DNA of 64,000 nucleotides from Dehalococcoidia bacterium (GTDB lineage Bacteria; Chloroflexota; Dehalococcoidia; UBA6926). Below, piece by piece: positions 2,919 through 64,000 of the stretch (its first letter is position 1; each line of letters begins with the position of its first letter). The stretch is from NCBI GenBank assembly GCA_009841045.1, contig VXMO01000010.1, positions 6,544-70,543 of the forward strand. Direction: 5' to 3'. The notes under the pieces are model-generated. The model was not told where the DNA came from. It saw only the letters and a program-made list of their open reading frames with translations, and made no database searches. The position numbers were made by a program, and so were the translations under genes.

Positions 2919-3950
2919 GTGACTGGCTCCCCAGAGACACGCCCGTTTGGTCCGCCGGAGTTGGGGATTTCCATTGCGCCGTTGGGGGTGGGGGCGTGGC
3001 CGTGGGGTTCGACATGGTACTGGGGCTACGGCAAGTCCTATGGCGAGGATGACGTGCGCGGGGCGTTCCGGGCATCGCTCGATGCGGGTGTGACGCTGTT
3101 CGATACGGCGGAGTTATATGGGCGGGGGAAGTCCGAGAGAATTCTTGGGCGGTTGGCAGGGGAGCTTTCGAGTTCAGGCAATGGAGACACCCCGATGGAT
3201 TCCGGCCCCGCATCGGAGTACGGGGCATGCTTTCGCCGGAATGAGGGGAGTGGGGCTGCACAGCCCTTTATCGCGACGAAGTACATGCCCTATCCATGGC
3301 GGTGGCGGACGGCGGATGTGCCTCGCGCGCTCAAGGCGAGTCTGCGGCGGCTTGGACTGGAGCGCGTCGATCTGTACCAGATCCACTGGCCGGTTGTTCC
3401 CGCGCGGCTGCGGCTCAGGCAGTGGATCGAGGGGCTGATTCGGGTGCATGGCGAGGGGTTGGTGGGAGCCGTCGGCGTGTCAAATTTCGATGCGGATCTG
3501 ACGAAGCGCACTCATGAACTGCTTTCGAAGGCCGGTATTCCGCTCGCGTCCAACCAGCTGCCATATAGCCTGCTTGATCGCCACATCGAGCACGAGGGGC
3601 TGCTGGACGTGTGCAAGGACCTGGGCGTGACGGTGATTGCCTATAGCCCTATCGCAGAGGGGCTGCTAACGGGCAAGTACACGCCGGACAATAGACCCGC
3701 CGGTTGGCGGGGGCGGCGACTGCGCAAGAAGGTTGTCCAAGCGCAGCCGATTGTTGAGGCGCTGCGTGAAATCGCTGGGCGGCACGAGGACAAGACGCCG
3801 TCACAGGTAGCGCTCCGGTGGTTGATCCAGAAGGGGTCGGTGCCGATTCCAGGCGCTAAGACGGCGCAACAGGCGGCGGACAACGCGGGCGCTCTGGGGT
3901 GGGCGCTCACAGACGAGGAGATGCCGGCGCTGGATGAGGTTTCGGCCTGA
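2919..3950 (+). CDS. Aldo/keto reductase family oxidoreductase.
   Basis: AKR motifs LGVGAWPWG, LFDTAELYG.GKSE and IATK. Start assigned to GTG 2919, just after the vapC stop; the longer track ORF from 2790 overlaps vapC. Start uncertain. Contains a ~35 aa insertion after the GRGKSE motif. Confidence 0.75.
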   Translation: MTGSPETRPFGPPELGISIAPLGVGAWPWGSTWYWGYGKSYGEDDVRGAFRASLDAGVTLFDTAELYGRGKSERILGRLAGELSSSGNGDTPMDSGPASEYGACFRRNEGSGAAQPFIATKYMPYPWRWRTADVPRALKASLRRLGLERVDLYQIHWPVVPARLRLRQWIEGLIRVHGEGLVGAVGVSNFDADLTKRTHELLSKAGIPLASNQLPYSLLDRHIEHEGLLDVCKDLGVTVIAYSPIAEGLLTGKYTPDNRPAGWRGRRLRKKVVQAQPIVEALREIAGRHEDKTPSQVALRWLIQKGSVPIPGAKTAQQAADNAGALGWALTDEEMPALDEVSA

Positions 3951-43946: not shown

Positions 43947-46769
43947 CTAGTCTTCATCCTCCTCAGCATCATCCTCTTCGGGGAGTTCGGCATCAGTGTC
44001 ATCGTCCGGGACGATTTCGACGATGTCTGTGGCGGGTTCGTCGTCGTCAAGCTCAGCGGTAGGTTCGTCGGCGGCCTCTGCCTCCGCAGCCTTTGCCTTG
44101 CCGTTCCGGCGACTCTTGGCGGATGACTTCGCCTTTGCGCCGGCTTTGGCCTTTGGCTTGGCGCCGTTCTTCTTGGCAGAGCCGTTCTTGGTCTCAGGCG
44201 GGGGCAGCTGCTCTTCCGCCTCCGGGAACTGAGCGATGGCCACTACTTCGTCATCCGCATCGAGGTTCATCACGCGAACGCCACTGGTGTCCCGGCCTTT
44301 CGGGCGAACGTTGTCGAGCGTGGTACGGATAACAATGCCCTTCCGTGAGATCAGCATGATCTCCTCGTCGCGCGTCGCAGCGGCAATGCCGACGATGAGA
44401 CCGGTGGGCGCGCGGCTGTCACTCCGCACTTTGAACGTGGCGATGCCCATACCGCCCCTGTTGCGGACAGCGTAGCCGTCGGTCTTTGACCGACCATCCT
44501 TGACTTCGACGACTTGCCCCGTGCCCATGCGCGTGCTCTTGCCGTAGCCGCGCGCGGACACCACAAACAGGTACTTCTCCGGGTCCGCGATAACAGCGCC
44601 AACAACGTTGTCTTCCGTGCCGCGCTTGCCAAAGCGGATGCCAAGCACGCCGCCGGATGTTGCCGATGCGGACCTGAGCGCGTTTGTTTCAAAGCGAATG
44701 GCGAGCCCCTGCTCGGTGACGAGGATCACCTGGTCCTCTTCCTTGGCCAGGATGACGCTGACCAAATCATCGCCTTCCAACAGGTTCATCGCCTTCTTGC
44801 CGGTGCTTCGCACCTTCACGAACCGCTCCAACGGAGTTCGCTTCACAATGCCCTTGCGCGTGGCGAATACGAGGTAGTCGTGTTCGGAGAGGTCGGATGC
44901 CGCCATGACTGTCGTGACCTGCTCATTCGGCGCAAGGGCGCTGCCCTGAAACAGGTTGGCGACGGGGATGCCGCGCGCCGTGCGCGACGCCTCTGCCGGC
45001 AGGTCAAAGCACCTGAGCGTTGTCACACGGCCGCGATTCGTGAAGAACAGCAGCGTGTCATGCGTGTCACAGACGAGCAGGTGCTGGACGATGTCCTCTT
45101 CACGCGTGGTCACGCCGGTGACGCCCCTGCCGCCGCGGTGCTGTCGGCGGTAGGCAGATGCCAGCACGCGCTTGATGTAGCCGCGCTGGCTGATGGTAAC
45201 GACGACCTCGTTATGCGGGATCAGGTCTTCACGACGGACCGCGCCGAGCTCGTTCTCGTCGATCTCCGTCCGGCGTTCGTCGCCGTGCTTCTCCTTGAGT
45301 TCCTCGATCTCCTCACGGACGACGGACGTGATGCGGGTGGGATCGGCGAGGATGGCTTCGAGTTCGGCGATGCGCTCCCTGAGTTCTTCAAGTTCATCCA
45401 TGATGGCCTGACGCTCAAGGGCGGCCAACCTGCGTAATTGCATATCGAGGATCGCCTGCGCCTGCCGCTGTGAGAGCGTGTAGCGCTCAATCAGCGTGAT
45501 GCGGGCGGCGTCCGCGGACTCAGCGTTGCGAATGACCTCAATCACCTCATCGAGGTTGTCCAGCGCGACACGCAGCCCCTCCAAAACGTGGGCGCGATCC
45601 TGCGCGCGACGCAGTTCATAGCGCGTGCGGTTGATAACAACATCACGCCGGAAGCGGATGAAGTGGTGGATGATCTGCCTGAGCGGGAGAACCTGCGGCT
45701 CTCCGTCCACCAGCGCGAGGGCGTTGATGGAGAAGGACGTGCGCATGGCCGTGTGTTCAAAGAGGTTGTTGAGCACGATGTGGGCGGCGGCGTCACGCCG
45801 CAGTTCAATGACGACCCGGAGGCCATCGCGATCGGACTCATCGCGGATCTCACTGATGCCGTCCAGCCGCTTGCTGCGGACGAGGTCGGCCATCTTCTCG
45901 ACAAGCGCGGCCTTGTTAACCTGATAGGGGAGTTCGGTAACGACGATCTGGGGCCGCTGGTTGCGCCCCTCGCCGTCCTGGATCTCGGCCCGGGCCTCGA
46001 TGATGACGCGGCCGCGTCCCGTGGCGTAGGCAGCGCGGATGCCCTCTGTACCGCGGATGATTCCCTGAGTGGGGAAATCCGGGCCCTTGATGAATTGGTG
46101 CAGCTCATCGAGCGTGGCATCAAACTCGCCGCCGTCCGGCGTTTCCCGCCAGCGGTCGATGGCGAACAGGATGGCATCGCAGACCTCGGTCAGATTGTGG
46201 GGCGGCATGTTTGTGGCCATGCCAACGGCGATGCCCGCGGTGCCGTTGACGAGGAGGTTGGGTATACGCGCCGGCAGGACGACGGGCTCGCGCTCCGAGT
46301 CGTCAAAGTTCTCGGCGAACGCGACGGTCTGCCTGTCGATATCGGCGAGCATCTCCTCGGCGATGGCGGCCAGCCGCGCCTCCGTGTATCGCATGGCGGC
46401 GGGCGGATCGTTATCGACGGAGCCGAAGTTGCCCTGCCCATCCACCAGCGGATAGCGCAGCGAGAAGGGCTGCGCGAGGCGAACGAGGGCGTCATAGACG
46501 GGAGAGTCGCCGTGCGGGTGATACTTGGCGATGACGTCACCTACCACGCGGGCGCTCTTGCGATAGGCGGTATTGCTTCTCATACCCTGCTCGTACATGG
46601 CGTAGAGGACGCGGCGCTGGACGGGTTTGAGGCCGTCTCTCACGTCCGGCAGGGCGCGTGAGACGATGACGCTCATCGCGTAGTCCAGATACGCCTCGCG
46701 CATCTGGCGCTCAAGGGCTACGGAACGTTCAACCATGAAGCTTCGCCTCCATCCCGGGCCGACGGGCAA
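43947..46769 (-). CDS. gyrA: DNA gyrase subunit A with an extended Lys/Ala-rich then acidic C-terminal tail.
   Basis: Active-site region AAMRYTE and a GyrA-box beta-pinwheel; 940 aa; tail [16 protein letters not shown]...[10 protein letters not shown]. Confidence 0.95.
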
Positions 46770-58590: not shown

Positions 58591-61032
58591 GTGAATCGAG
58601 GGAATGGTGGCACAGTGAGCGCCATGACTACGACAAATAGCGAGAACACGGCGCTTGGGCACCTGAAGGTCGTTGAGCTTGGAGGCGGGACGGGCGCGGC
58701 GGCGATGGCGGGGCGGCTGCTTGCAGACATGGGCGCGGACGCTGTGCTCGTTGAGCCGCCCGGCGGGGTCGGGGCGCGAGGTATCGGCCCGTTTGCCAAC
58801 GATGTTGACGATCCTGACCGCAGCCTGACGTTTCTCGACCACAACATCAGCAAGCGCTCCGTGGTTCTTGATCTCGATACGCCAGATGGGCAGGAGTCCG
58901 TTCGCCGCCTTGCCTCATGGGCTGACGTGCTAATCGAGTCGCATGAACCCGGGTATCTTCCAGAGCGCGGCTTGGGCTACGAGAACCTTGCAGATATCAA
59001 CCCCGAACTCGTCTACGGTTCGCTGACGCCGTTCGGCCAGACGGGGCCGTTTGCGAATTACGCATCGACGGAATTGATCATCCAGTCACTGGCGGGGGAT
59101 CCATGGGTCTACGGCGACGATGAGCGCGCGCCGGCGATGGTGCCCGGAGAGGCCACCGCCCGCATCGGCTCCATGCACCTTGTGTACGGCATCCTGCTGG
59201 CGCTGCGGGAGCGACGTTGGTCGACGCGCGGGCAGCACGTGGACGTTTCACAGCAAGACATCGGTGTCTGGCAGCTGGTGAGCGGCAGCATCTCCCGCGT
59301 CGGGCTGCGGAATGAGGTGTTTCGCCGCCCCGGCAAGGCATCTACCGGCATCGGCAGTATCTATCACTGCGCGGACGGCGTCATTCAGTTTTTCCCGTCC
59401 ACGAACGCGCAGTTCCGCGGCCTGGTCACGGGCTGGATGCAGGACTCCACGTTCGACGACGAGGCCTGGGACGACACGAATTTCCGCCGCGACAACTACG
59501 ACATCATCGACGTCCGCATGAGAGAGTTCATGGGCAAGTTGACGGCTGCGGAGATCGAGGAAAGCGCCGCCATCCATGACGTGCCGATGGCGCGCCTGTC
59601 CACCATGGCGGAGTTCGTTGAGCACCCGCATACCGTAACCCGCCAGTTCATTGTCGATGCGAGCCACCCTGTTGTCGGCGACTACCGCGCGCCCGGCCCG
59701 CCGTACCGGTTCAAGGGGACGCCGTGGGCGATTCATCGCCCTGCTCCACGCATCGATGAGCATGGCGATGAACTGCGCAAGATGATCGAGGGGCTATCGT
59801 CAACGCCGCCCGATCCGACCAAATACGTTGCGCGGCGGCACGACCGGCGCAAGCAGCCGCTTGAAGGCATTCGCATTGCCGACCTGAGCCGTGTGTTTGC
59901 CGGGCCCTTTGGCACGATGCTGCTGGGATTCCATGGCGCGGAGGTCATTCGGATAGAGTCGGAGGACCTGCCGGCTTTCAGGATGCCGATGCAGCCGAAC
60001 TACCCGGAACTGAACCGCAACAAGCAGTGCGTGACCATCGACATGCGCTCAAAGAAGGGGCAGGAACTCATCAAGGGCATCGTCGCACAGTCGGATGTCG
60101 TTGTTGAGAACTTCCGCCCCACCGTCATGGAGCGCATGGGGCTTTCCTACGAGGAGCTGCGCAAGGTTCGCCCGAATGTGATTATGGCATCTATGTCCGG
60201 GTACGGTATGGATGGTCCGATGCGAGACCGACCTGCTTTCGGGCAACTGCTGATGGCCTTCGGCGGGCTGTCATACATGTGGGGGCATCCTGAGAGCGAT
60301 ATCGATACGCGCCCCAAGAATGCGTATTCCGACTTCACGCTCGGCGCGCAGGCGGCGATGGCCGTGATGATGGCGCTGGAGCACCGCGACCGGACCGGCG
60401 AGGGGCAGCACATCGAGAGTTCCCACGTTGAGGGGCTGGCGGCACTGCTGGGGCCGGAGATGCTGCGCTACCTGATCAACGGTGAAAGCCCGCAGCCGCG
60501 CGGCAACGCGAGTGACATCTACGCTCCGCACGGCGTGTATCCCTGTTTGGGTCACGACGCGTGGGTTTCTATCGCGGTCGAGAACGATGAGCAGTGGGGC
60601 AAGCTGGTTGCGGTGATGGACGAGCCGACGTGGGCGAATGACGGCAAGTTCGCGACGCAGGAGAATCGGCTCGCCAACCGCGCCGAACTGGATGAGCGCC
60701 TGAGCGGGTGGACCTCGGAACGGTGGGCGGGACAGGTGCAGGTTGCGCTGCAGGCCGTCGGCGTGCCGTGCGGCGCGGTGCAGAACCCGCTGGGCCTGCT
60801 TGCCGATCCGCAGCTGCAGCATCGCGGGACCATCGTGACAGCGCACCACGACCCGGACTGGTGGGGCACGATGCAGCACCCCGGCGTTTCACTGCACCTG
60901 AGCGCGACGCCCGGCTGGGCGACGGACTCCACGCCCGGCCTCGGCCAGGACAATGATCGCGTCTTCAAGCAGCTTCTCGGGCTGACCTCCGCAGAGATAG
61001 AGGCGCTAACGGCGGAGGGGGTTTTGAGATAG
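58591..61032 (+). CDS. Tandem-fused family III (CaiB/BaiF) CoA-transferase with two complete domains.
   Basis: Two successive CoA_transf_3-like halves: LKVVELGGGTGAAAMAGRLLADMGADAV...HEPG... and IRIADLSRVFAGPFGTMLLGFHGAEVIRIE...NFRP.... 813 aa. Confidence 0.8.
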   Translation: MNRGNGGTVSAMTTTNSENTALGHLKVVELGGGTGAAAMAGRLLADMGADAVLVEPPGGVGARGIGPFANDVDDPDRSLTFLDHNISKRSVVLDLDTPDGQESVRRLASWADVLIESHEPGYLPERGLGYENLADINPELVYGSLTPFGQTGPFANYASTELIIQSLAGDPWVYGDDERAPAMVPGEATARIGSMHLVYGILLALRERRWSTRGQHVDVSQQDIGVWQLVSGSISRVGLRNEVFRRPGKASTGIGSIYHCADGVIQFFPSTNAQFRGLVTGWMQDSTFDDEAWDDTNFRRDNYDIIDVRMREFMGKLTAAEIEESAAIHDVPMARLSTMAEFVEHPHTVTRQFIVDASHPVVGDYRAPGPPYRFKGTPWAIHRPAPRIDEHGDELRKMIEGLSSTPPDPTKYVARRHDRRKQPLEGIRIADLSRVFAGPFGTMLLGFHGAEVIRIESEDLPAFRMPMQPNYPELNRNKQCVTIDMRSKKGQELIKGIVAQSDVVVENFRPTVMERMGLSYEELRKVRPNVIMASMSGYGMDGPMRDRPAFGQLLMAFGGLSYMWGHPESDIDTRPKNAYSDFTLGAQAAMAVMMALEHRDRTGEGQHIESSHVEGLAALLGPEMLRYLINGESPQPRGNASDIYAPHGVYPCLGHDAWVSIAVENDEQWGKLVAVMDEPTWANDGKFATQENRLANRAELDERLSGWTSERWAGQVQVALQAVGVPCGAVQNPLGLLADPQLQHRGTIVTAHHDPDWWGTMQHPGVSLHLSATPGWATDSTPGLGQDNDRVFKQLLGLTSAEIEALTAEGVLR
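58607..58629 (+). repeat. R1 direct repeat, copy 2 (identical 23-mer), at the start of the CoA-transferase gene.
   Basis: See copy 1 at 57506-57528. Confidence 0.6.
60976..61021 (+). repeat. R2 direct repeat, copy 1 (3' end of the CoA-transferase CDS).
   Basis: 46 nt, 42/46 identical to 61690-61735. Confidence 0.55.
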
Positions 61033-61073
61033 AGGTGAACTGTGGGCTTAGCCGAGTGCCCTATACTCTTGTT

Positions 61074-61325
61074 ATGAATACCAGTGACGAGTTGCTCAAA
61101 CGGATTACAGCGCGTCCCGATGTCTTTGGCGGCAAGCCAATCATTCGCGACATGCGTATCTCCGTAGAGTTGATTTTGAGCCTGCTAAGTCAAGGGGAGT
61201 CCGTGGAGAGCATCCTGGATGATTATCCGGGACTTGAGCCTGACGACATCCGGGCTTGCACAGCCTACGCCCACGCGGTGATAGCAGGTGACAGCCTCTC
61301 AGCGGTTTCTGTTGCAGGGTCGTGA
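61074..61325 (+). CDS. DUF433 domain protein (antitoxin-like).
   Basis: PDVFGGKPIIRDMRISVELIL is the DUF433 signature. Start set at ATG 61074. Confidence 0.65.
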   Translation: MNTSDELLKRITARPDVFGGKPIIRDMRISVELILSLLSQGESVESILDDYPGLEPDDIRACTAYAHAVIAGDSLSAVSVAGS

Positions 61326-61678
61326 GGTTTCTCGTTGATCGGTGTGCCGGTCGGCGATTAGCTGAGTGGTTACGCTCCGAAGGGCACGATGTCTTTGAAG
61401 CGATTCAAGTCAATCCAGACCCGGGAGACCAGGCACTCCTGGAACTTGCGGCAACTCAAAATCGAGTCTTCATCACTATTGACACTGATTTTGGTGAACT
61501 GATTTTCCTCCACGGAGTGGCTCATGCGGGACTGGTCCGCCTGCCTGATGTCCCATCAGAGCGGCGAATCGAGTTGATGACAGAAATCATTACACGCTAC
61601 AGCACTCAGTTAGAGGAGCGCGCCATCATCACAGTAACTGGCAATCGTATAAGGATTACGCCCAGTACAGTTAACTGA
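61322..61678 (+). CDS. DUF5615 / PIN-like (Mut7-C-like) protein (toxin-like).
   Basis: MRFLVDRCAG...FITIDTDFG acidic-residue pattern of PIN-like DUF5615. Overlaps the DUF433 gene (GTGA). Confidence 0.65.
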   Translation: MRFLVDRCAGRRLAEWLRSEGHDVFEAIQVNPDPGDQALLELAATQNRVFITIDTDFGELIFLHGVAHAGLVRLPDVPSERRIELMTEIITRYSTQLEERAIITVTGNRIRITPSTVN

Positions 61679-61796: not shown

Positions 61797-62939
61797 GTGC
61801 GAATTTCGCGTCCAGCCGTCGAGATCATTCAAGGGAATCTCAAACTCTATCTCACTTACCTGACCCCACGGGACTTGGATGAGGAAGGTTTCTACGAAGT
61901 AGACAAGCTGGATGCCACGCCCGGCGCAAGCAAAGGCTACCAGAGGATCTTGAACGAACGCCGTGTCGGTGCACTCGACCGCTACTTGAGGGAGGCGCAC
62001 GAGCACGGCTATGCGAATCTTCCAACCACAGTCTTCTTGGCTACCGAAGGTAAGGTAAGGTATAACGAAGATAAGGGAGTGATTTCCTTTGATACAAAGA
62101 ATGTTTGCCCATTTAATGTTGTCGATGGCCAGCATCGAATTGAGGGGCTTCGCCGAGCGAGCAGGACGGACAATGACCTTCGATCATTTCGGCTCCCTGT
62201 AACTATTGCCACTGGCCTCGATGAGGCCCACCAGATGTACCATTTCTTTGTAGTGAATACAACACAGGTTCCTGTTGATCAGTCGCTACAGCAACAAATA
62301 GCCGCTAGATTCGAAGACATGAATCGGGTGGAGAAACTCCCATACATTCCACATTGGCTTCAGCATCGAGTGCACACAGGACGGGATCAACGGGCTCTGC
62401 AAATTGTCACAAAGCTCAATACTCATCGAAAATCCCCTATGAAGGGCCGTATACAGATGGCCAACGATCCAGAAGGTGGCCGCAATAAGATCAAGCAATC
62501 CTCAATTGTGAAGATCATACAAGATCAGGTGTTGACCTCAGGCAATCCACTTGAAGGCAACGAAACCTCCGCGGACGTCCAAGGGAACATTCTATTGAAC
62601 TTGTGGATTGCCATCGACAAACTCTTCGTCGATGGTCGAAATAGAGATGACACTGTAATCTACAAGAGCAACGGCCTATTTTGGGGCTTTGGCATTTCGA
62701 GATGGGTTTTCAACGTGCTCTACTCAAGCACAGATAACTTTACTGTCGATTCCATAACAAAGACGATTCAACAAGGGCTCGACGAGTTACCTGATGAGGC
62801 GGCGGCTATAGCAAGCCCTGATTGGTGGCTGTCCGGTGGAGGAAGGGCCAGTGCTCTGAACAGAGCTAATGCGCGGGTTTACATTGAAGCCTTCAGACAA
62901 GGTCTCGCGAAGGCTCGAAACCGCGAGATTCGGGTATGA
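61797..62939 (+). CDS. DGQHR domain protein (DndB family). Low GC.
   Basis: NVVDGQHRIEGL contains the eponymous DGQHR motif. GTG start with a GGGGGA Shine-Dalgarno; 380 aa; GC about 50%. Confidence 0.75.
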   Translation: MRISRPAVEIIQGNLKLYLTYLTPRDLDEEGFYEVDKLDATPGASKGYQRILNERRVGALDRYLREAHEHGYANLPTTVFLATEGKVRYNEDKGVISFDTKNVCPFNVVDGQHRIEGLRRASRTDNDLRSFRLPVTIATGLDEAHQMYHFFVVNTTQVPVDQSLQQQIAARFEDMNRVEKLPYIPHWLQHRVHTGRDQRALQIVTKLNTHRKSPMKGRIQMANDPEGGRNKIKQSSIVKIIQDQVLTSGNPLEGNETSADVQGNILLNLWIAIDKLFVDGRNRDDTVIYKSNGLFWGFGISRWVFNVLYSSTDNFTVDSITKTIQQGLDELPDEAAAIASPDWWLSGGGRASALNRANARVYIEAFRQGLAKARNREIRV

Positions 62940-63268
62940 TTCTTAGAGCACTGACCTCAGAAATGACTGATCGGGTGGCATTCCGCCTGAATCATTTGCG
63001 CTTTGTACCCGAGGAGTCGGGCTGCTATGCACTGGCAAGCATTGACGAAATCGTTCTCTATGTGGGAAAGACCACGAACTTACATCGCAGGCTAGAAGAT
63101 CACTTGTCCGATCCCGAAAAAACTGGCATCACACCCAGCGGTAGAGCGGTTTGGTTTTACTACGGATTCTGGCCAGAAGAACGCATCGAACATGTCGAGA
63201 TGCAACTCTTGCGCGATCACAAGATGGTTGAGGGCGTCTGGCCAATATTGAACAAGACTGGCCCTTGA
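62936..63268 (+). CDS. Small GIY-YIG nuclease domain protein.
   Basis: GCYALASIDEIVLYVGKTTNLHRRLEDHL matches GIY...YIG plus the conserved Arg/Glu region. ATG overlaps the DGQHR stop (ATGA). 110 aa. Confidence 0.75.
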   Translation: MILRALTSEMTDRVAFRLNHLRFVPEESGCYALASIDEIVLYVGKTTNLHRRLEDHLSDPEKTGITPSGRAVWFYYGFWPEERIEHVEMQLLRDHKMVEGVWPILNKTGP

Positions 63269-63283
63269 CTTGGATGCGACAGG

Positions 63284-63829
63284 ATGTCCAAGTTGCGCAA
63301 GCTCATACTCTATTCGGCGATGAGCCTGGACGGATATATCGCGGGGCCGAACGGTGAGATTGATTGGCTGGATGCGGCAGGCGTTGACAGCGATTACGGT
63401 TACGGGGATTTCTACGGCTCCATCGATACCACGCTGATGGGGCGCGCCACCTACGAGATCTCGCAGACCGTGGATGAGTTCCCCTACCCGGATAAGACCA
63501 ACTATGTCTTCACCCGGAACTCCGCCCTGGCTGACACGGCGCGTGTCCGCTTCATCACCAGCGACGTGGTCGACTTTACTCGACGCCTCAAGGAAGAGGC
63601 CGGCGGAGACATTTGGCTGGTTGGCGGAGGCCAGATCAACGCAATCTTGCTGAACGCGGAACTAATCGATGAGGTGATTCTAACGGTCTTTCCACTGCTC
63701 CTTGGCGACGGCATTCCGCTGTTTGCTCCGGGCGCCCGTCGCACAGCTTTCACAACTATTGGGTGCCACACATATGAGAGCGGCATCATCCAATGGCATT
63801 TGACACCCGCATACGAGCCAGCATCATAG
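63284..63829 (+). CDS. Dihydrofolate reductase family protein (RibD C-terminal domain-like).
   Basis: LILYSAMSLDGYIAGPNGEIDWL...WLVGGGQ. Confidence 0.8.
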   Translation: MSKLRKLILYSAMSLDGYIAGPNGEIDWLDAAGVDSDYGYGDFYGSIDTTLMGRATYEISQTVDEFPYPDKTNYVFTRNSALADTARVRFITSDVVDFTRRLKEEAGGDIWLVGGGQINAILLNAELIDEVILTVFPLLLGDGIPLFAPGARRTAFTTIGCHTYESGIIQWHLTPAYEPAS

Positions 63830-63874
63830 CGGCAGGCGTATACAATCACACGACAACGAGAGGAAAACGCTTCC

Positions 63875-64000
63875 ATGCCAAACATTGAGTTCTATCACTG
63901 GACGACTTGAAACACGTGCAAGACGGCGAAGGCGGCGCTTTCGCAGGCAGGGCATGAGTTTGCTGAGCGTGACTTCTTCAAGGACCGGTTCAGCAAGGAT
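63875..64000 (+). CDS. ArsC/Spx-family thioredoxin-fold protein, 3'-truncated, with an in-frame TGA at 63908-63910 at the first Cys position of the CxxC motif (candidate selenoprotein).
   Basis: ATG 63875 has a GAGAGGA Shine-Dalgarno. Translation is MPNIEFYHWTT-(TGA)-NTCKTAKAALSQAGHEFAERDFFKDRFSKD. The frame stays open to the window end and aligns with the Spx/ArsC start YxxxxCxxCRKAxxxL, with U replacing the first Cys. Confidence 0.5.

Follow-up and report, generated by a model that had tools for sequence, protein, structure and literature searches.

Gene organization at the locus

The window, by which we mean the whole stretch of 64,000 nucleotides analysed here, ends inside a gene of the ArsC/Spx family. 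The first 42 of its 116 codons occupy positions 63875..64000 on the + strand, and this candidate selenoprotein gene was delimited from its open reading frame, the overlapping ENA scaffold L001, and matches to Pfam PF03960 and to PDB entries. Translation from an ATG at 63875-63877 gives MPNIEFYHWTT, meets an in-frame TGA at 63908-63910 (+ strand, codon 12) and then remains open to base 64000, encoding NTCKTAKAALSQAGHEFAERDFFKDRFSKD. The TGA would be a selenocysteine (Sec) codon specifying the first residue of a U-x-x-C motif, and a TGC at 63917..63919 (+ strand) encodes Cys15, the presumed resolving cysteine of U12-x-x-C15. A bacterial SECIS-type hairpin lies at 63926..63944 (+ strand), as judged from its pairing, its covariation, the behaviour of 4-fold sites and published criteria. 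An earlier note on this DNA had described the start codon, the leading peptide, the TGA and the open frame to the end of the window, and all of this could be confirmed base for base.

The nearest upstream in-frame stop is the TAG at 63827-63829 which ends a RibD_C gene, and no start-type codon occurs in frame between it and the ATG at 63875. On the 3′ side of the TGA, the first in-frame start-type codons are a TTG at codon 74 and an ATG at codon 79, both past the end of the window, and there is no in-frame ATG, GTG or TTG between the UGA and codon 74. The earlier claim that no alternative start follows the TGA therefore holds. The Shine-Dalgarno sequence, previously described as good, has to be downgraded: sequence reading identifies a putative GAGAGGA at 63858..63864 (+ strand), 10 nt 5′ of the ATG, which is a moderate match. 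The orthologue L003 does not share this upstream sequence, and the motif is weak evidence for a ribosome-binding site.

The remainder of the gene, which the earlier note had proposed to recover by extending the sequence beyond position 64000, was obtained from public assemblies. An exact 64-nt DNA search of genome contigs gave no match, and a protein search with the 42-amino-acid N-terminal piece gave no candidates. Looking up the exact sequence of the neighbouring RibD_C protein led to two independent assemblies of the locus. One of these, the ENA scaffold L001, matches the window without a single difference across their 10,717-nt overlap and runs 3 kb further. It completes the open reading frame as MPNIEFYHWTT-U-NTCKTAKAALSQAGHEFAERDFFKDRFSKDEIVELLNGEPASALFNPRSQALKKAGIDPASLSEEQMLDLLVEEPRYWRRPVAVIDGRLIAGANAKTLAAELNL, 116 codons closed by a TAA stop, so that the extension yields a complete 116-amino-acid ArsC/Spx-family protein; the gene ends with this TAA at the position equivalent to 64225 on the source contig. 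The second, a Logan assembly, carries an identical RibD_C protein and the same gene order, a likeness that holds at the level of protein and gene order.

Upstream of the gene lie a CoA-transferase gene (58591-61032) and a variable insertion region; downstream, two hotdog-fold genes face it in convergent orientation. In the window, the region between 61035 and 63829 is occupied by a DUF433/DUF5615 (PIN-like) toxin-antitoxin pair (61035-61678), a DndB-like gene (61797-62939), a GIY-YIG nuclease gene (62936-63268) and the RibD_C reductase gene (63284-63829). It behaves as a variable insertion spot, orthologous loci carrying other cargo (e.g. DUF4357) or none. At the opposite end of the window, the open reading frame at 22-2067 matched only C-terminal GcvP profiles (GDC-P 283-428 and GcvP2_C) and looks like either a split GcvP of the subunit-2 type or a gene truncated by the beginning of the window.

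Protein family and predicted active site

Profile searches were carried out with U replaced by C. The protein matches the Pfam family PF03960 (ArsC) with 46.8 bits against a cut-off of 24, residues 7-110 corresponding to profile positions 1-76 of 79. Curated NCBIfam models gave scores below their thresholds: the Spx/MgsR model TIGR01617 gave 52 bits (cut-off 75.05; relatives reach at most 74.7 bits), the Spx model NF002459 gave 49.1 bits (cut-off 123) and the arsenate reductase model TIGR00014 gave 31 bits (cut-off 106). The model NF041106, ArsC_rel_Se_1, "ArsC family (seleno)protein", gave 25.5 bits against a cut-off of 85, and the window protein is thus not a member, despite a match which spans positions 5-105 of 107. 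Seven other Sec-type relatives tested against NF041106 reached at most 30.5 bits, all of them below 85. The window protein and these seven relatives fall below every curated NCBIfam cut-off.

The best PDB matches are Spx proteins (E = 2e-9, residues 6-108), and the alignment stops at about residue 108 of 131. In these matches U12 and C15 align with Cys10 and Cys13 of Spx; the N-terminal CxxC redox-switch feature of Spx is present as U12-x-x-C15, with Sec for the first Cys. The claim that the TGA falls on the catalytic first Cys of the motif is borne out, since alignments place the UGA both on Cys10 of Spx and on Cys12 of ArsC.

Two more specific assignments were considered and rejected. The protein is probably not an arsenate reductase, since the arginine triad Arg60/Arg94/Arg107 is not conserved and the TIGR00014 score lies far below its cut-off; no ars genes were found near the gene in the window or in the loci examined. 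Nor does it appear to be a bona fide Spx regulator, given the missed cut-offs and the absence of the C-terminal extension. With scores below cut-off, Spx proteins as the best structural matches and an incomplete set of ArsC arginines, its sequence places it as a Spx-like member of the ArsC superfamily that falls outside both the true Spx proteins and the arsenate reductases.

Conservation of the in-frame UGA codon

A scan of species-representative genomes yielded 26 loci, all from Dehalococcoidia/SAR202 MAGs, with 61-97% protein identity. In all of them the tblastn match runs through the stop, and TGA is found at codon 12 in every one of these species-level orthologues (26/26). The orthologue is present on complete chromosomes such as OZ242203.1 (97% identical), OZ243973.1, OZ241912.1 and CBDBNN010000003.1. 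The flanking residues are also retained, with [FL]YHW (xx) before the TGA and xTC[KR]TA[KR]AALSQAG after it. YHW is invariant among the orthologues and the upstream His codon varies synonymously between CAC and CAT, which indicates that the upstream 11 codons belong to the protein, a point on which the earlier note had made its reading depend.

The truncated homologue P0001, used as query in an exhaustive HMMER search, retrieved 193 representatives, many of them fragments of about 98 amino acids. Distant relatives which could be traced to their DNA have a TGA in the same column in 6/6 cases, within the motifs FYCWSR-U-ATCRR, LYWWSR-U-SSCRK, LYLWKG-U-STCQK, LYWWPR-U-SSCRK, FYWWSK-U-SSCRK and AHWAK-U-GTCRT. 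The presence of TGA at the same codon in 32/32 independent relatives is far beyond chance. Cys15 is invariant in all 32 Sec-type sequences and nearly so in the Cys-type homologues. The 23 full-length non-Sec representatives (28-41% identity) all carry a Cys in the U column, the second Cys of their C-[ST]-x-C-R motif being nearly invariant. The alignment with Cys-containing homologues that the earlier note had suggested thus returns an invariant Cys in the TGA column. On this sequence comparison, the 23 Cys homologues and the TGA set form a classic Sec/Cys homologue pair. Seven long proteins in the same search output (P0040, P0042, P0063, P0107, P0114, P0147 and P0161; 478-1290 amino acids) contain 3-8 separate query matches each, and may be tandem domain arrays or fused or misassembled open reading frames.

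TGA also serves as a normal terminator. It ends 10 of the 19 Pfam-supported genes and 19 of the 43 long open frames of the window, where it is the commonest ordinary stop codon; it is not reassigned in the host genome.

A SECIS-type hairpin downstream of the UGA

The hairpin at 63926-63944, GCGAAGGC-GGC-GCTTTCGC (in other notation GCGAAGGC-GGC-GCUUUCGC), begins 15 nt after the UGA. It consists of a 5′ arm (63926-63933), a GGC apical loop (63934-63936) and a 3′ arm (63937-63944), giving a stem of 8 bp and a UGA-to-loop gap of 23 nt. The earlier note had reported a modest hairpin about 15 nt downstream. The hairpin is indeed present at this position; the word modest undersells it, since it is conserved, covaries and lies within all of the published limits.

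RNAfold predicts the hairpin in every orthologue. In the alignment of the 26 orthologues, 208/208 pair-cells are paired, compared to 32-69% in shifted registers. Two pair swaps are seen among them, one A-U <-> G-C (13 vs 13) and one G-U <-> A-U; the even split of the former is probably a single event separating two clades. When the six distant relatives are included (32 sequences), 96.9% of the helix is paired, against 34-68% in shifted registers, and double compensatory changes occur at 4 of the 8 pairs. In shuffled controls, 2/500 match the number of covarying pairs and 0/500 match the covariation score. The distant hairpins have a different sequence in the same register, for example GUGAGGGA-GUU-UCUCUCGC, GCAAAAGC-GUU-GCUUUUGC and GUAAGGG-AGUUG-CUCUUAC.

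Because AKAALSQ, the peptide that the hairpin encodes, is conserved in its own right, only an analysis of 4-fold sites can tell constraint on the RNA from constraint on the protein. Inside the hairpin, 4 of 5 such sites are invariant across the 26 species, compared to 0 of 36 outside it in the gene, and the fifth (Leu22, CUU/CUC) changes only along with its pairing partner. Mean entropy at 4-fold sites is 0.2 bits inside the hairpin versus 1.2 bits elsewhere in the gene.

The hairpin was also compared by hand with the published bSECIS criteria. These call for a loop of 3-9 nt, an upper stem of 4-16 bp, an apex of the form N1-G-[G|U]-N-N2 (PMC13188914, Fig. 2A legend), a UGA-to-loop distance of 16-37 nt and a minimum free energy <= -7.5 kcal/mol (PMC13188914). 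The loop of 3 nt (5 nt counting the closing pair), the 8-bp stem and the 23-nt gap are all within these limits, the apex C-G-G-[C/U]-G fits the pattern, and the energy of the hairpin alone, -11.2 kcal/mol, is under the limit of -7.5. Folding energy alone is unremarkable and does not set the element apart from dinucleotide shuffles (z-scores of -2.0 in the window and between -0.06 and -1.4 in relatives, in DNA with a GC content of 61.6%), and we have therefore relied on the comparative evidence. From the covariation and the 4-fold sites, the assignment of the hairpin as a bacterial SECIS is well supported.

Selenocysteine machinery and other selenoprotein genes

ARAGORN detected no tRNA genes in the 64-kb window, Rfam at gathering thresholds gave no match in it, and Pfam identified no SelA, SelB or SelD among its 10 size-matched open reading frames. 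ARAGORN likewise found no tRNA-Sec in the 29 loci searched, the only tRNA genes being those for tRNA-Leu and tRNA-Trp, in L017. Two scans of the 64 kb, one for UxxC/CxxU motifs and one with a codon-usage score for the two flanks of each TGA, revealed no second selenoprotein gene. The candidate at 63266 was rejected as a true stop with the next gene following in frame, and that at 45471 was rejected as an antisense artefact; the remaining output of the scans was out-of-frame noise.

Sec decoding in SAR202/Dehalococcoidia has support in the literature at the level of the group. Among the ten bacteria richest in selenoprotein genes in BSepDB are two Dehalococcoidia MAGs, with 49 and 46 such genes; one of the two bears a UUID-style name, as do the MAGs of the loci studied here. 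Most sponge-symbiont bins, from various phyla, contain SelA and SelB COGs together. SAR202 MAGs from Lost City encode GrdB, and among the seven Lost City MAGs with GrdB, most have a glycine reductase cluster that includes SelA and SelB.

Annotation of the homologues

All 25 database homologues are truncated at the N-terminus (69-137 amino acids, covering 52-82% of the query), which is the signature of gene callers halting at an internal stop. For L001 itself, the gene-caller product is a 38-amino-acid fragment starting at Met79 (L001 10826-10942). In the public protein collection, the copies that we found are 38-100 amino acids long and lack the N-terminus (the clusters of P0001, P0004, P0013 and P0021). 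Among the 38 cluster members whose records were read, just two are named, as "hypothetical protein" (MYD35692.1) and "arsenate reductase" (IMG), and none of the 38 is labelled as a selenoprotein. The public copies found are therefore without the active site, an annotation error which is corrected here.

Two independent assemblies are frameshifted within the G-rich run that directly follows the hairpin. In L014, at about 3070-3075, this run reads GCAGGGGGCAC compared to GCAGGCGGGGCAC in its neighbours. P0002, 137 amino acids long, is fused out of frame and regains the frame at GHEF. Both are most likely homopolymer assembly errors, not pseudogenes.

Genomic context and linkage to mutL

The neighbourhoods of the window's own clade (13 loci) are uninformative as to function and include no conserved redox partner; a downstream SulP transporter occurs in 3 of the 13 loci, and mutL is found neither in these loci nor within the window. 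In the sister clade (L015-L027), mutL is always the next gene after the Sec gene. In 11 of its 13 loci the two genes share a stop/start overlap, TGATG (TTC-TGATG-GCG; at about 3346-3353 in each locus), which suggests translational coupling of the Sec gene and mutL.

Distant Sec-type relatives present related arrangements. L033 (1-2297) contains mutS, a Sec-type gene, a 145-amino-acid open reading frame and mutL in this order, and in L035 (878-2195) mutL lies 61 nt downstream of the Sec-type gene. In L034 (1321-2297) the Sec-type gene adjoins genes for an OGG1-type glycosylase and a DinG-like helicase. Neither of the two Cys-type relatives checked has the mutL link. MutL from L033 and from L035 shares 58-61% identity with that of the sister clade, a level at which the linkage may be inherited Dehalococcoidia synteny and not independent functional evidence.

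The coupling to mutL in the sister clade suggests a functional context for this ArsC/Spx-like Sec family. One could go further and propose a distinct Spx-like Sec lineage with MutL as its ancestral genomic partner, an idea that we regard as unlikely. If it were true, the protein would be a selenium-dependent redox partner or regulator of mismatch repair, or a Spx-like redox-sensing regulator outside Firmicutes, and not a generic thiol oxidoreductase.

Proposed mechanism and alternative explanations

The reading that the earlier note had put forward, a candidate selenoprotein in which Sec replaces Cys in a UxxC motif, gains support from the 32/32 conserved TGA codons, the Cys homologues and the constraint on the hairpin. 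Very probably, the UGA at 63908-63910 is read as selenocysteine by SECIS-dependent recoding, giving a 116-amino-acid U12-x-x-C15 redox protein. The comparative side of this reading is observed: it comprises the conserved in-frame UGA, the Sec/Cys pairing, RNA-level constraint with covariation, and membership of the Pfam family. Mechanistically, the UGA in the ribosomal A site would not be taken as a stop; we infer that the hairpin at 63926-63944 recruits SelB-GTP-Sec-tRNA(Sec) to the ribosome and that Sec is actually inserted. The product would have a thioredoxin-like fold with a Sec12-Asn-Thr-Cys15 centre at the N-terminus of helix 1. Spx switches through a C10-C13 disulfide and ArsC uses Cys12 as its nucleophile; by analogy, the mature protein would most likely alternate between a selenol/thiol state and an intramolecular U12-C15 selenenylsulfide. 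Its physiological role may be that of a small redox-active oxidoreductase or a redox sensor.

A lone TGA in a short open reading frame looks like a point error, and it could be a nonsense mutation or the product of faulty sequencing or assembly, the gene then being a pseudogene or having a real TGC or TGT at this position. That errors do occur at the locus is indicated by the nearby frameshifts in the orthologue L014 and the database protein P0002. Against this stand the identical TGA in the independent ENA assembly and in 32/32 relatives, which come from different species and projects, as well as purifying selection on both sides of the TGA and the synonymous changes in the upstream YHW codons. 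We give an error a practically negligible probability, and the TGA of the 26 orthologues and distant relatives leaves error and pseudogene alike effectively refuted. The UGA could also be a true stop, in which case the locus would produce an 11-residue leader or, by internal initiation, a truncated protein, and the hairpin would have another function, for instance in regulating translation or mRNA stability. Gene callers do annotate downstream fragments and no Sec-machinery gene was found among the size-matched open reading frames of the 64-kb window, both of which fit termination. Yet there is no in-frame start from the UGA to codon 74, and a product beginning at codon 74 or 79 would lose the entire beta-alpha-beta core together with the motif equivalent to CxxC. 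The stretch from the UGA to codon 74 is moreover conserved as protein, and the upstream peptide joined to U-x-x-C restores the invariant motif of the family. Termination at this codon is very improbable.

The comparative data indicate a translated codon, not the inserted residue, and Cys would be chemically adequate at codon 12. The UGA might therefore be decoded as Cys, Trp or Gly by near-cognate read-through, a suppressor tRNA or partial reassignment. However, no other stop codon is used as often in the window as TGA, and the location, loop sequence and stem length of the hairpin agree with the SelB-dependent bSECIS model. The site is that of the nucleophilic Cys of a redox motif, a classic Sec position, and Dehalococcoidia MAGs are reported to have large selenoproteomes. 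We consider insertion of one of these three residues to be improbable.

Comparison with known systems

A report of 2006 described ArsC-like selenoproteins from bacterial genomes (PMC1794560). Two groups were later described in the GOS marine metagenome (Zhang & Gladyshev 2008, PMC2398784): "Arsenate reductase 1" (pfam03960, UxxS, 77 sequences) and "Arsenate reductase 2" (cd03032, UxxC, 42 Sec sequences with 238 Cys homologues). An "Arsenate reductase-like protein" (COG1393) with UxxC also figures in the reviews PMC9312934 and PMC13188914, the latter of which maps the arsenate reductase-like UxxC family to NF041106. Like the window protein, these UxxC families have the ArsC-superfamily fold with Sec for the first Cys, and they resemble the window gene in their marine uncultured source, their many Cys homologues and their identification by bioinformatics only. 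The UxxC motif, the Spx-like best matches and the marine SAR202 lineage of the window protein would fit "Arsenate reductase 2" in particular; this comparison, which extends to published members (MAM02162.1, MDE3003982.1) and cd03032, draws on the family descriptions. NF041106 is itself a curated ArsC-family model which expects Sec or Cys at the active site, as is predicted for the window protein. Since UxxC selenoproteins of the ArsC superfamily have been catalogued since 2005-2008, the window gene is of an already known kind, and it may already be included in BSepDB. On the other hand, the Sec-type relatives fail the model to which the catalogued family is tied, so that, judged from profile scores, the window protein and its relatives may represent a separate, more Spx-like Sec lineage.

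The finding is modestly new, in that the curated NCBIfam models all failed and the public copies found are truncated fragments. It adds a selenoprotein backed by a covarying SECIS to SAR202, an abundant uncultured marine lineage with reportedly large selenoproteomes, and leaves existing knowledge of Sec decoding and of the ArsC/Spx fold unchanged.

The closest relative in the structural database is Spx of Bacillus subtilis and other Firmicutes (PDB 1Z3E, 3GFK, 7F75). Spx is a regulator of the Firmicutes that binds the alpha-CTD of RNA polymerase. It has in common with the window protein the positions R60 and RRP(91-93), and differs from it in carrying Cys instead of Sec at the switch and in its length of 131-132 amino acids with a C-terminal extension, compared to 116 amino acids without the extension. 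The glutaredoxin-coupled R773 ArsC (PDB 1I9D; the sequence used in the alignment is identical to this entry at 141/141 positions) has the same fold and is 24% identical. Its catalytic Cys12 aligns with U12 and its Arg94 with R92, whereas its Arg60 aligns with Asn58 of the window protein and the alignment ends before Arg107; its motif is CxxS, not CxxC, where the window protein has UxxC. At the RNA level, the hairpin resembles the consensus bacterial SECIS of the E. coli fdhF type, which is likewise a stem-loop located right after the UGA and inside the coding sequence. The fdhF SECIS of E. coli has a bulged U, and the window hairpin is built without one.
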